Below are positions 19,535-23,793 of a stretch of 29,215 nucleotides of DNA, one piece after another; the stretch's first letter is position 1; each line of letters opens with the position of its first letter. Source of the DNA: Tepidiformaceae bacterium (GTDB taxonomy: Bacteria > Chloroflexota > Dehalococcoidia > Tepidiformales > Tepidiformaceae); assembly GCA_035606745.1 (NCBI GenBank), contig DATNET010000130.1:1-29215 (forward strand), written 5' to 3'. The notes under the pieces were generated by a model. That model saw only the letters and a list, made by a program, of their open reading frames with translations, searched no databases and was not told the origin of the DNA. The translations under genes and the position numbers were made by a program.

Positions 19535-20446
19535 TTACGAGTTCGACCCGTACACGTCGCGCGGATTCGTCCAGCCAGCGGAGAACCGCTCGATGGCCGA
19601 GTACGTGCAGGTGTAGTTGTCTTCGGTGTTGTGCTCGCGGAACATCGGCTTTTTGCGCCAAATGACGCGGATGCCGGCCTTGATGTCGGACACGAGCCAC
19701 CAGTTCGTGGTGCTCGTCAGGTACGGCGACGCTTCCTCGGCGACCTCGATACCCATGCCCTTGAGCACGTTGATCGCGTTGTTGTTCGTGTCGTTCTGCT
19801 TCTCCGACTTGAGGATGCGCATCGCCCGGTAGAGCAACTGAACGGGGACCACGATGCGCTTTGGCCGATATCCGTTGACGATGTAGCCGTTCGAGTCCGG
19901 GAGCTGCGCCATGTTCGCGCGGGCGGTCTCGATTGCCGTTTCCGACAGCGAGAGCGCGTTCGTGAACATGTTGGAGTACGTGCCGCCCTTCGGGAGAAGG
20001 TGGGCCGTGTTGCAGAGCGACAGCGCATCGGCGCCGACGAACGAAGACGAGAAGGAGTTGATGAAGATCGAATTGATCACATACTCCTGAGTGAGATTGA
20101 GCGAATTGCTCAGATTCTCCGTACCGTTGATCGCCTCGTCGTACTTGCAGTCATCGATCGCTTCCTCCGAAAGAGTGAACCGGAGGCCATAGGTGACGTG
20201 CGTGTACCGCTTGGCGAAGCCCTGCTGAATGGTGTCGAACTGGAGCATCGCGCCCTGCGCCTTCGCAGGCGCCGGCCCGAGGCCGGCGAACTCCTGATCG
20301 TCTTCGAAGGCGTCCGTTGAATTGGACACCTTGAAGCCCATGTCCTTCCAAAAGAGCTTCTTTTTCTGCTCTTGGCCCCACACCAAGTCGAGGGTCGGCT
20401 TGAGTGTGGACGGGATATTTGAGGTGGTGAGAATTGGCGTAGCCAT
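19535..20446 (-). CDS. Major capsid protein (Mu gpT-like HK97-fold family, 303 aa)
   Basis: FEDDQEFAGLGPAPAKAQGA..RYTHVTYGLRFTLSEEAIDD, LSETAIETA, PKRIVVP, NDTNNNAINVL, YLTSTTNWWL, ERFSAGWTNPR. Confidence 0.92.
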   Translation of the reverse strand: MATPILTTSNIPSTLKPTLDLVWGQEQKKKLFWKDMGFKVSNSTDAFEDDQEFAGLGPAPAKAQGAMLQFDTIQQGFAKRYTHVTYGLRFTLSEEAIDDCKYDEAINGTENLSNSLNLTQEYVINSIFINSFSSSFVGADALSLCNTAHLLPKGGTYSNMFTNALSLSETAIETARANMAQLPDSNGYIVNGYRPKRIVVPVQLLYRAMRILKSEKQNDTNNNAINVLKGMGIEVAEEASPYLTSTTNWWLVSDIKAGIRVIWRKKPMFREHNTEDNYTCTYSAIERFSAGWTNPRDVYGSNS

Positions 20447-20455
20447 GATCGCTCC

Positions 20456-21112
20456 TTAGGTTCCCGAGGTGGTGTAGGGAGGAAGCCAGCCCTGGTTGAG
20501 AGTCACCAGGGCCTTGCAGTGAGAGAGCGTCGGATCGCCCATGCCCGCCTGAGTGATGTCGAGCCCGTTCTCTAGCGAGTAGCCGGGGACCCCGATGATT
20601 CGGAACTGCGCGGCGGTCGTAGCGTGCGAGCTGTCGTCCAGGAACATGCAGGAATTTCCGATCGTGGTGCTCGGCGTGCCCGTGATAACGAGGTTGCAGT
20701 TCTCACCCATCAAGCCAAGACGGCCGGCAACCGTGTTCGAAGTCGTCCCATTCAGGTCGACCTCCCAGATAACGTCAGCCGTACCGGGAATGTACGAAAC
20801 GAGCGATTCGTTCGGGCTGCCGACCGTGGTCGGAGAGAACGTAGTGCTCGCCGGAATGAAATCGCTCATCGTGCGACGACCCGTGAAAGCGCCGCCGGCC
20901 TGGATGAACGAGCAGGCATTGATGACCCCGAGAAGAATCGTGCTGTTGGCGGCAGCCTGAGCCACCGTGCCGTCGCTTACCGGAATGATCCAGTCGCCCT
21001 TGTTGAGCTGGGTTCCGTAGTTATTCGCCACGGGGCGAATGAGCGGAGTCGGCAGCGGACCCCCTGAAAGAGTTCCGACGGCTCGAAAGCCGCCAATAGT
21101 GACGTTTGCCAT
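20456..21112 (-). CDS. Capsid cement/decoration protein (218 aa)
   Basis: MAN..GFRAVG..LNKGDWIIP..GVINAC..DVIWEVD pattern directly upstream of the major capsid gene. Confidence 0.7.
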   Translation of the reverse strand: MANVTIGGFRAVGTLSGGPLPTPLIRPVANNYGTQLNKGDWIIPVSDGTVAQAAANSTILLGVINACSFIQAGGAFTGRRTMSDFIPASTTFSPTTVGSPNESLVSYIPGTADVIWEVDLNGTTSNTVAGRLGLMGENCNLVITGTPSTTIGNSCMFLDDSSHATTAAQFRIIGVPGYSLENGLDITQAGMGDPTLSHCKALVTLNQGWLPPYTTSGT

Positions 21113-21115
21113 GAT

Positions 21116-21550
21116 TTATCGAGCCTCCTCAGACGCGGTGACGTTGAAACGGTTGCGGTAGCCGGGGTCCTTCGAATAGGACAGATATCGGGTGTCGTCC
21201 TGCGACGGGTCCTTGATCTTCGCCTGCGTCGCCTTGAGGACGCGGTTATGGCGTTCCTCGGCGGCGTGCTGGATCGCCTCGCCGCGCTCCTTGTCGATTT
21301 CCATCAACGTGAGCTGGTTGTTGACGCGGTAGCCGGGGCCGTGATCGGCGATGCCGTCGTACCACTTGGCCGGGCGGGGGCCATTGGCGCTGCGCTCGGT
21401 GCGCGCGTAGCCGCGCCCAAAGGCGGTCGGCATGTCCTCATCCGAGACGTACCAATACTTCTTGGACGGGTCGGCGTTGAGAACTTGGTCGTACTGCGGG
21501 TCAGAGAGGATGTTCGTGTCGGTCGGGTCGGGTCGCTTGCGCCGTGCCAT
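21116..21550 (-). CDS. Conserved capsid-operon hypothetical protein (144 aa)
   Basis: KKYWYVS..GRGY..LTLMEIDKE pattern typical of the gene between scaffold and cement; GGAGA 4 nt before the ATG at 21550. Confidence 0.7.
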   Translation of the reverse strand: MARRKRPDPTDTNILSDPQYDQVLNADPSKKYWYVSDEDMPTAFGRGYARTERSANGPRPAKWYDGIADHGPGYRVNNQLTLMEIDKERGEAIQHAAEERHNRVLKATQAKIKDPSQDDTRYLSYSKDPGYRNRFNVTASEEAR

Positions 21551-22035
21551 GGGATCTCCGAATGGCTTCGTTTCACCGTTCCTCGCGATGCCATTCGCGA
21601 GAGGCGTCAACGGACCACCGGACCCCGAACTACCGGGCGGCGCTGCTTACTTCGAAACCGTACCCGACCCGCAGTAAGATCGGAGGCTAGCTACCAGTAT
21701 GCACGAGCTACGTAATGACGCAAACGTTTTCTGTGGATGAGCGAACTACCCGCCAGTACGGCTGGCGGTCCCCGTGCGCTCCGTCGATTTCAGCGCTACG
21801 CCGCGCTGGAGTTCAGACCTGGGTGGCGACGGTTCCCCTTTGCGCCGAGATGGAGCGGCGCGAAGATTAGGTTCTATGTCGGCGCCCCGGCGTACGGGCA
21901 ACGCATGCGGGCGCCGACAACCCGGAGTCGTACAGCCCCGAAGGGCCGTTCCCCGGTGGGCTCGTCTCTCCCGCGTGGCTGGCCATGTCACAGCCCTTTG
22001 GACTCGCGGCCCGATCGAGACGCTCTCCCTCAATC
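21551..22035 (-). ncRNA. Candidate structured non-coding RNA / long regulatory leader (485 nt)
   Basis: No credible ORF in an otherwise gap-free operon; at least 8 stems found by eye, including an 11-bp perfect stem and a C(UUCG)G hairpin; no family assigned; strand not certain. Confidence 0.55.
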
Positions 22036-22959
22036 TTACCGACCGGCCTTGGCCTGGCGACGAGCTTCGGGAGCGCCGACCTCGCGCGCCCACTTCTTCT
22101 CGGCTTCCGCCGGATCGAGACCGGGGTACAACTTGTGGGCCATCGTCTTCTCGGCCTTGCCCATTCGAACGGTCACGGGACCTTCGCCGCCGCCTTCGCC
22201 TTCGCCGCCGCCGGGGGCCTGGTAAGCGGCACGGGAGCGCTCGGATGGGGGAGTATTGATCTTGAGGTTGAGATCGCGCTGAACCTCGGCTGCGACAACT
22301 CGGGCCATCTCATACGAGAACTGCTGACCGGAACGCATGCGGCGATCGACCTCTGCGTCGGTCGCGTCCAGAGCGCGCTTGTTCGTTGTGAGCCACGGAA
22401 ACTCGCGCTGGAGACTATCGCGGGCCTGGAGGAGCTGCGGAGTCATCGCCATCGGCTGCTGCCGCTGGAACTGCTGGAACCGCTGATCGATGTCGGGTTC
22501 CATCTCAGCGCGGAATTCCAGCTTGGCGATCTCGCGCTGCTTGGCGTTGTACGCGCGCATCTCGGCCTTGGCGCGTTCCTGGTCCTTCGCAGCGGCGGCC
22601 ATCCCGGCGTTCGCGAGATGACGATCGGCTTCGTCTTCCAGAGAGGCGATCTTGGTCTTGCGCGCGGCGGCGGGATCGTCCTGGTTGCGCTGGCCGAGAG
22701 CGGCGGCGTAACCACGGGTCTCGGCGAGATCGCGCTCGATGCGAGCAACCCGCTCCTCGGCGAGACGGGCACGCTCATCGGCTTGACGACGGGCCTCTTT
22801 CTCGTCGCGCAGGGTCGCCTGACGGCGATCTTTCCGGGACTGCTTCTGCTCCTCGGTCTCGGCCGGCTTGTCGGTCGGAGTTTCGACGTCATCCGGATCA
22901 ACCGTTACGCCCTCGGTCTTCTCTTCAACCTTCGGCTCGTCGTCATTCTCGGGAACCAT
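22036..22959 (-). CDS. Capsid scaffolding protein (307 aa)
   Basis: Acidic N-terminus, long coiled coil, FPWL motif and C-terminal KAEKTMAHKLYPG helix; position between portal module and capsid genes. Confidence 0.75.
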   Translation of the reverse strand: MVPENDDEPKVEEKTEGVTVDPDDVETPTDKPAETEEQKQSRKDRRQATLRDEKEARRQADERARLAEERVARIERDLAETRGYAAALGQRNQDDPAAARKTKIASLEDEADRHLANAGMAAAAKDQERAKAEMRAYNAKQREIAKLEFRAEMEPDIDQRFQQFQRQQPMAMTPQLLQARDSLQREFPWLTTNKRALDATDAEVDRRMRSGQQFSYEMARVVAAEVQRDLNLKINTPPSERSRAAYQAPGGGEGEGGGEGPVTVRMGKAEKTMAHKLYPGLDPAEAEKKWAREVGAPEARRQAKAGR

Positions 22960-23397
22960 TTACTTGCCTTTCTTCTTGGGGACGTAGAAGTGTTGCCCGG
23001 TAGGTTCGCCCTCTACCGCAAGCTCCTTGATGTCGTATCCCTTCAACCGTTCAAGGGCATCCACGGAGATTTGCACGTCTTCGACCTTCATCGCCGTGAT
23101 CTGCTCGGCCTTCTGCGCGGCCTCGCGCCGAACGGTGCGGTTGGTTCCGGCAAAGCGGCCGAACCAAATGACGTCGCCGATTTCGATCAGCGCCGCCTTG
23201 AGGATGTCGATCGCACCGAGGCCGGCAGCGAGCAACACGCCGATCTCCTGCTCGCCCTGATCGGTTTCGGGAATGTAGAGGCCGCCTGCCGTCCGTTCGA
23301 CCGGCGGAATGCGGAACACGAGGATTGTCTTACCCATCGGAAGACCCGGAATCGGCGGGATTCCGTACTGCTTCATTCGTTCGTCAAGCTTGCTCAT
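22960..23397 (-). CDS. groES: GroES/Cpn10-like co-chaperonin (145 aa)
   Basis: PMGKTILV..ERTAGGLYIPET..GVLLAAGLG..IEIGDVIWFGRFAG. Confidence 0.85.
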   Translation of the reverse strand: MSKLDERMKQYGIPPIPGLPMGKTILVFRIPPVERTAGGLYIPETDQGEQEIGVLLAAGLGAIDILKAALIEIGDVIWFGRFAGTNRTVRREAAQKAEQITAMKVEDVQISVDALERLKGYDIKELAVEGEPTGQHFYVPKKKGK

Positions 23398-23630
23398 TTC
23401 TTCTCCGGTTTGCGTTCCAGCATCGAAGTGATGCCATCGATAAAGTCAATCACTCCTGAGTATCGGGCGACCTCATTTGTCGTTACCATCGCGCGGCGCC
23501 CTGCATTCACGAGCATGTGAATGTTGTTCGCTTTCGCTTCGGCCAAGAACGCAACGAAGTCCTGCGCGATGTCGCTTTCTTCCAGCCACGCGCGAATCTC
23601 CTCGGGTTTGCGCTCCTCAAACTTACTCAC
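23394..23630 (-). CDS. Small helical head-module protein (78 aa)
   Basis: AAGGAG RBS; YSGVIDFIDGITSMLE; ATGA overlap with the GroES-like gene. Confidence 0.65.
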   Translation of the reverse strand: MSKFEERKPEEIRAWLEESDIAQDFVAFLAEAKANNIHMLVNAGRRAMVTTNEVARYSGVIDFIDGITSMLERKPEKK

Positions 23631-23793
23631 TCGGACGCTCCTTCTTGCCGCCCTTGCTACCAGCCGCCTTCGCCTGCTCCGGTGTCCAGCGATGCGCTTT
23701 CCCGCTGGCCTGCGCCGCGAGGCCGCCCTTACTCGCGACGGCGGTTCGCTCCTTCGGGCTCAGGTTCGCGAACCCGCGTTTCTGGGGACTCAT
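23623..23793 (-). CDS. KGG-domain general stress protein (YciG/GsiB/Con-10-like, 56 aa), absent from the supplied ORF track
   Basis: MSPQKRGFANLSPKERTAVASKGGLAAQASGKAHRWTPEQAKAAGSKGGKKERPSE; two KGG motifs with the RGFA..SKGG..AH.W/F..E.A..AG.KGG consensus. Confidence 0.85.
   Translation of the reverse strand: MSPQKRGFANLSPKERTAVASKGGLAAQASGKAHRWTPEQAKAAGSKGGKKERPSE

Follow-up and report, generated by a model that had tools for sequence, protein, structure and literature searches.

To our knowledge, few post-transcriptional controls of head genes have been described in tailed DNA phages, the autoregulation exerted by the P22 scaffold being the classic case of head-gene control. In the preQ1-I and SAM-II riboswitches, a hairpin loop pairs with a 3' tail near the ribosome-binding site. 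According to the model of autogenous repression, the pseudoknot of the T4 gene 32 leader nucleates binding of the repressor (PMC535899), and in the E. coli rpsO mRNA the pseudoknot is the form bound by S15 (PMC3985624). Moreover, a catalogue of structured RNAs in IMG/VR phages contains five candidates located ahead of a major capsid gene (PHA00201) and six ahead of GP20 genes (PMC10690425).

The locus described here lies in a window of 29,215 nt (the whole stretch of DNA that was analysed), which is a phage contig, C409 within a bin of 639 contigs. The contig has almost no DNA in common with the bin, the bin was searched for 16S and none was found, none of the GTDB genomes carries a close capsid, and the closest cultured relatives reach a capsid identity of only about 30%. 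On the minus strand, on which all features of this contig given below are located, the large terminase and portal genes are followed by a GroES-like gene, a 307-aa gene, a gap of 485 nt, a 144-aa gene, a 218-aa gene and the major capsid gene. The GroES-like co-chaperonin gene (22960-23397) is found between portal and scaffold throughout the clade; a small KGG-repeat gene (23623-23793) has a counterpart in L011. By its position the 307-aa gene, whose product gave no family match, is probably the scaffold gene. The first gene behind the gap (21116-21550) belongs, as judged from homologues, to an uncharacterised phage head-module family with an Arg/Lys-rich N-terminus that is conserved across homologues. 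Its 144-aa product matched no PHROG, Pfam, NCBIfam or PDB fold, and a fold search against BFVD retrieved uncharacterised phage proteins only. The 218-aa gene (20456-21112), likewise without family match, has its ribosome-binding site inside the last codons of the first gene, and its position suggests a capsid accessory protein. The major capsid gene (19535-20446) was assigned by Pfam PF25209 with a score above the cut-off. The genes downstream of the gap, in a long co-oriented operon with a virion region of about 17 kb, are structural, with no metabolic or transport gene. The C-terminal EEAR of the 144-aa family is nearly invariant and coincides with the Shine-Dalgarno sequence of the 218-aa gene (21116-21130), so that it may be conserved for translation and not for protein function.

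A preliminary description of this DNA had pointed to the final 63 nt of the 485-nt gap and the start codon, and all pairing segments that it named were verified in place. These are an upstream hairpin (21601-21582) with the loop AUGGCA (21594-21589), the segment GCCAU (21566-21562), the GGAG (21559-21556), the AUG (21550-21548), and a perfect 8-nt complement between 21597-21590 and 21566-21559 that arises in 0.085% of tail shuffles. The start codon at 21550 is also supported, since homologues share the same initial Met and GGAG precedes the equivalent start in 19 of 22 loci. A start at 21610 was rejected: an in-frame stop lies at most 22 codons upstream in 12 of 24 loci, and a start at that codon occurs in only 2.

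For the pairings, 22 distinct loci with capsids 53-94% identical were compared, in all of which a structured leader precedes the homologous first gene. In every one of them the loop of the last hairpin module forms 4-7 bp with a segment that follows the module at a distance of 4-13 nt; in our genome this segment is GCCAU (21562-21566), preceded by a 7-nt A-rich linker (21573-21567). The helices include UGGC:GCCA, CGGC:GCCG, GGCC:GGCC, GCUGC:GCAGC, GCUGG:CCAGC and UGCC:GGCG, and such differing helices sit in separate lineages, even in sister taxa of the tree. By permutation tests that ignore relatedness, the loops match their own tails (-10.1 kcal/mol) better than swapped tails (-8.6 +/- 0.4; p=0.0002) or shuffled ones (-7.1), and a second knot, formed by the first module with GCAG (21643-21646) over 4-9 bp in 19 of 19 loci, behaves alike (-11.7 versus -8.4 +/- 0.5 for swapped pairs, 0 of 20000 permutations being as strong). 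When a partner of the last loop was sought 5' of the Shine-Dalgarno sequence, it was present in all 22 loci and covaried, whereas the Shine-Dalgarno sequence was unchanged. The pseudoknot helix therefore does not contain it; the knot ends 5' of it in 22 of 22 loci, at a distance of 1-6 nt, mostly 3-4. A model built from the 22 loci retrieved module and pseudoknot in a phage outside the training set (L067, capsid 42% identical, E=1.5e-5), and in L068 (capsid 49% identical) a degenerate single module alone was seen. The ENA contig that carries L067, the most distant locus with a complete leader, measures 153,557 bp against at most about 50 kb for other contigs of the clade, a threefold difference; L067 is possibly a prophage, which would reveal a host. 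The preliminary description had offered an H-type pseudoknot or a strand exchange; it is the H-type form of 4-7 bp, with the hairpin intact, that relatives keep, and not the 8-bp exchange. In our genome the strand-exchanged form is 0.6-1.9 kcal/mol less stable than the nested fold, which comprises the upstream hairpin and a hairpin masking the AUG (-27.7 kcal/mol, of which the latter contributes -7.6).

This AUG-masking hairpin (21546-21566) had been taken for the OFF state of a translational switch, with the pseudoknot as its ON state and a ligand, a protein or timing toggling between GCCAU-AUGGC and the knot. The two folds are indeed feasible here, and engagement of the pseudoknot strand lowers the cost of opening the region from Shine-Dalgarno to AUG by 3.2 kcal/mol. 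Moreover, the E. coli rpsO operator is a two-state RNA of such a kind (PMC3985624). Eight of the 22 loci have a pairing of 4-5 bp, in L028 and L031 with both sides changed, and the hairpin is slightly better than composition shuffles (p=0.01). However, swapping the partners between loci gives pairings that are just as good (p=0.39), and in the other 14 loci the pairing reaches at most 3 bp although the full module is kept. The trait shows no clustering on the tree (7 changes versus 6.9 for shuffled labels). Five of the eight loci combine a Met-Ala start with a GCC tail facing it, and those of the 13 loci with a Met-Pro start that have a GCC tail pair over 3 bp at most. The copy of the start context in the loop AUGGCA exists here, but most of it simply follows from combining a GGC loop with a Met-Ala start; in 13 of 22 loci the start is Met-Pro. 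With any alternative fold allowed, the median gain in opening is 0.5 kcal/mol; it reaches about 2 kcal/mol or more in four loci and is negative in nine.

Conservation of the complementarities had been named beforehand as a test, which the loop-tail pairing passes and the OFF hairpin fails. Given a knot that is conserved and covarying and a hairpin that is scattered, the comparison indicates that the last loop-tail pseudoknot is real and under selection and that a two-state AUG switch is not the conserved mechanism; such a switch is very improbable, and the anti-RBS/anti-anti-RBS logic is not supported. Since the hairpin is unconserved and its effect on opening small, the conserved entity is a knot ending 1-6 nt before a free Shine-Dalgarno sequence. 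Competition between knot and hairpin could, at most, tune output locally in this genome. The switch read from one genome was thus half real (the knot) and half coincidence (the hairpin at the AUG). What stands of the proposed gating of capsid genes is that this stretch most likely regulates the head operon in cis.

[quoted passage not shown] The structured 5' leader (21551-21690, from the predicted transcription start, placed by promoter spacing, to the start codon) contains three tandem modules, and relatives have 2-3 of them in 105-150 nt; the two upstream copies and the promoter were missing from the preliminary description. Each module consists of a 4-bp stem N-R-C-C/G-G-U-N', a 1x4 internal loop in which U or G faces G-N-N-Y, a C-G pair and a variable upper hairpin. 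Module 1 (21656-21688) has a 7-bp upper stem above the 4-bp lower stem and the 1x4 loop, and CUGC (21674-21671) is its loop strand. Module 2 (21616-21642), which is optional, has the same core with a short hairpin, a GNRA-type loop in several relatives, and no pseudoknot. In module 3 (21574-21606), the lower stem CGCC/GGUG pairs 21606-21603 with 21577-21574 below the 1x4 loop, and the upper stem 21601-21595/21588-21582 carries the loop at 21594-21589. This is the conserved stem, in place of the CCGUU/AACGG that had been drawn at the 5' boundary.

Of 62 modules tallied in 23 loci, 37 have C-G and 18 have A-U as the outer pair, 51 have G-U as the second pair, and 55 retain the internal-loop G; these counts lean towards pairing because the descriptor itself selects for it. 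A strict descriptor gave 42 matches in leaders and 6 elsewhere (354 kb). In an alignment of the last module made by sequence only, 89.8% of cells are paired and two-sided changes were seen at 8 of 11 pairs; with 0.431, the covariation score exceeds that of shuffled alignments (0.134) and of slid registers (at most 0.098). Helix sequences vary freely, whereas the internal-loop core is fixed and repeated within one RNA. Of the unpaired bases, only the loop G is strongly kept; the other three bases on the 3' side of the internal loop vary, as do all linkers. Several variants were seen. In module 1 of L004, L006 and L032, U-A replaces the inner C-G pair and the internal loop is shortened to 1x2. 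In L031 (4811-4889), the module-1 loop can pair only with a segment behind module 2, and the resulting pseudoknot would have module 2 inside it. The linker of the last module (21567-21577) often reads GU-GNRA-C and could form a T-loop or a GNRA-like turn.

In front of the leader, the comparison points to a conserved, sigma-70-like promoter. The putative -35 hexamer is TTTGCG (21719-21724), where 15 of 19 loci have TTGAC at the same position; a consensus promoter scan of the window itself did not pick it up. The putative -10 hexamer CATACT (21696-21701) lies 17 nt behind the -35 and 7 nt ahead of module 1. Because the leader begins 6-8 nt past the -10 hexamer across loci and the spacing to TTGAC is fixed in those 15 of 19, the RNA most likely starts at module 1, with a predicted transcription start near 21690. 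In the spacer between -35 and -10, L007, L009, L011 and L019 have a palindrome of the type TGGCAC-N5-GTGCCA, which is at the same time similar to a sigma-54 -24/-12 site. A near-perfect match to the sigma-54 consensus is present in L029 (approximately 1062-1077), and other palindromes occur in L003 and L004; these might represent an operator or a dual promoter.

Further RNA elements lie upstream of the promoter. A second conserved element is found just ahead of it (21746-21832); it consists of a 6-bp stem that encloses a variable insert, followed by GGGGAC, a covarying hairpin of 7 bp whose loop starts with CCG, and GGUAG. It had no Rfam match; variants are present in L011, L014, L019 and L020, a partial one in L006, and it is absent from the others. 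Behind the stop codon of the scaffold gene lies a hairpin-rich cassette (21870-22035) that is 86% identical over 167 nt in L009, has a 33-nt core also in the distant L033 and is missing from closer relatives, and so looks like a mobile, patchily kept RNA module.

The position of module 1, which starts 0-2 nt past the predicted start site in nearly all loci, would suit a constitutive leader, in which a pseudoknot at the extreme 5' end protects the mRNA against nucleases and the compact modules prevent the GC-rich leader from pairing with the ribosome-binding site or dock on the 30S platform, giving a steady high output and no switch. A head operon encodes high-copy virion proteins, and no alternative fold is conserved, both of which fit. 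However, the fixed, repeated 1x4 loop and its G-U pair, kept even in the knot-less module 2, are left unexplained, and we consider a purely constitutive role unlikely.

The leader is, as far as comparative analysis of sequences can tell, an RNA uncatalogued in Rfam and conserved across a family of uncultured phages. With Rfam 15, there were no matches in the window at the gathering score, none in 21400-22100 at E up to 10 and none in 15 related loci. The motif occurs once per phage, at the leader position; the capsid clade has about 90 clusters. Two pattern scans of IMG/VR for other gene contexts returned clade members and chance matches without helices only; the motif was absent from the cultured phages searched and was not found in the rest of the bin or in 40 genomes related to the bin. 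In distant clades with capsids 30-33% identical the gene order is kept and the motif was not found; among the gaps listed for these clades, three measure 41-65 nt and one has at least 130 nt. No account of the leader turned up in literature searches.

The ribozyme layouts that were compared did not fit either. In the HDV-like layout, a nested double pseudoknot, a P3/L3 hairpin lies within P1 and J4/2 carries a catalytic C; the module has a loop of 5-14 nt without inner hairpin or conserved J4/2, and no Rfam match. By-eye comparison of layouts gave no fit to HDV-like, pistol, twister or hammerhead ribozymes or to group II domain 5.

A tandem-aptamer riboswitch, in which each module would bind an ion or a small molecule at its 1x4 loop and the crossing linker and thereby close the pseudoknot next to the Shine-Dalgarno sequence, might be considered, as H-type pseudoknots in this position are common in riboswitches (preQ1, SAM-II), tandem aptamers exist and the covariation is strong. 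Nevertheless, few unpaired bases are conserved, a single G among them, the Shine-Dalgarno sequence lies outside the pseudoknot strand, and no metabolic or transport gene follows. Together with the missing Rfam match and the restriction to this phage clade, this makes a riboswitch decidedly improbable.

Control at the level of transcription was weighed as well. Neither a U-tract terminator nor an attenuator was found in the leader, and neither of the flagged U-runs stands behind a module hairpin. The RNA might act as an antitermination or antipausing element in cis, binding polymerase like HK022 put or recruiting the Arg-rich product of the first gene as lambda N is recruited at nut, which would secure processivity over the virion region. 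It lies directly behind the promoter, as does putL (PMC9378689), and has fixed bulge nucleotides, GNRA-type loops and a long co-oriented operon downstream. On the other hand, the fixed spacing between last knot and Shine-Dalgarno sequence points to translation, and terminator-like sites downstream are no more common than in shuffles (13 versus 15.2). Moreover, put is an RNA of about 70 nt whose two stems are unlike each other, and no pseudoknot is mentioned in the paper on its structure (PMC9378689). Antitermination is thus distinctly unlikely.

We tentatively suggest, as a reading that may well hold, that the leader is a multivalent protein-binding translational operator, whose last knot is probably the bound, repressed form. 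Precedents for such a role of a knot are T4 gene 32 (PMC535899) and rpsO (PMC3985624). The repeated 1x4 internal loop would be a protein-binding site on a rigid pseudoknot scaffold, and a head-module product, when in excess and unassembled, would bind the modules. A protein operator is favoured since a fixed short internal loop on free helices resembles a protein site more than a ligand pocket, and since the last knot lies in a region that the 30S subunit covers. Binding might stabilise the last pseudoknot. As this knot ends within the ribosome footprint, about 10-15 nt ahead of the AUG, initiation would then be blocked or trapped; Shine-Dalgarno sequence and AUG would not need to be base-paired. 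[quoted passage not shown] We counted in favour of the operator the covarying modules and knots, the held spacing to the Shine-Dalgarno sequence, the lack of a terminator and the structural genes downstream; against it, the occurrence of the 144-aa family without the leader, the distance of module 1 from the ribosome-binding site (about 100 nt) and the degenerate L068.

The first candidate for the protein that would bind this operator is the 144-aa protein with its Arg-rich N-terminus, and otherwise the capsid or scaffold protein. This choice of RNA-binding partner is a guess, because the 144-aa family is widespread and uncharacterised and also occurs in clades without the leader. As no known RNA-binding fold was recognised, its basic tail may instead serve DNA or capsid assembly. 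A broader idea, which we regard as speculative and rather doubtful, is that the module is a new RNA fold acting as a repeated sensor. It might be a tandem aptamer by which the phage senses a host small molecule before capsids are made, or else a multivalent site that either binds RNA polymerase or gauges the amount of free, unassembled head protein. The leader would then belong to a wider class, so far undescribed, of pseudoknot arrays timing capsid synthesis in tailed phages.

Comparison of the relatives indicates that the cis-acting RNA is real and larger than first noted, and that its regulatory logic probably differs from the one proposed. The leader is small, well bounded and strongly covarying, with its own promoter and one repeated unit of 30-45 nt, and it can be synthesised and tested directly. 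It adds an RNA family missing from Rfam and could reveal what a widespread but uncharacterised protein of the head module does.

Compared by description only, the IMG/VR candidates also precede capsid genes, of another capsid family name, and may overlap with the present motif (PMC10690425). Our leader differs from preQ1-I and SAM-II: its Shine-Dalgarno sequence lies outside the pseudoknot helix, it conserves few unpaired bases, it precedes structural genes and it gave no Rfam match. HK022 put is likewise a structured RNA with bulged stems behind a phage promoter and ahead of a long operon; it has about 70 nt, two non-repeated stems and a triplex, serves lambdoid early operons and has no link to a ribosome-binding site (PMC9378689), whereas the present leader has 105-150 nt and 2-3 repeated modules with pseudoknots. 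The rpsO operator alternates between a pseudoknot and a double hairpin with the Shine-Dalgarno sequence paired in the second hairpin, an arrangement that is feasible in our genome; in rpsO, that sequence lies in the loop of the knot, the knot includes coding sequence and the gene encodes a ribosomal protein (PMC3985624). Here, in contrast, there is more than one knot, the last of them ends before the Shine-Dalgarno sequence, and the second hairpin lacks conservation among the relatives. The T4 gene 32 operator shares with our leader its place in a phage leader, an H-type pseudoknot 5' of the Shine-Dalgarno sequence and a structure that is conserved rather than the sequence, here on comparative evidence (PMC535899). 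Gene 32 encodes a ssDNA-binding protein, whereas the 144-aa protein here is without family or fold match. In T4, one knot of about 28 nt is followed by more than 40 unstructured A/U-rich nt with UUAAA repeats before the start (PMC535899), whereas the present leader has 2-3 bulged modules, a knot 1-6 nt from the Shine-Dalgarno sequence and head genes downstream.
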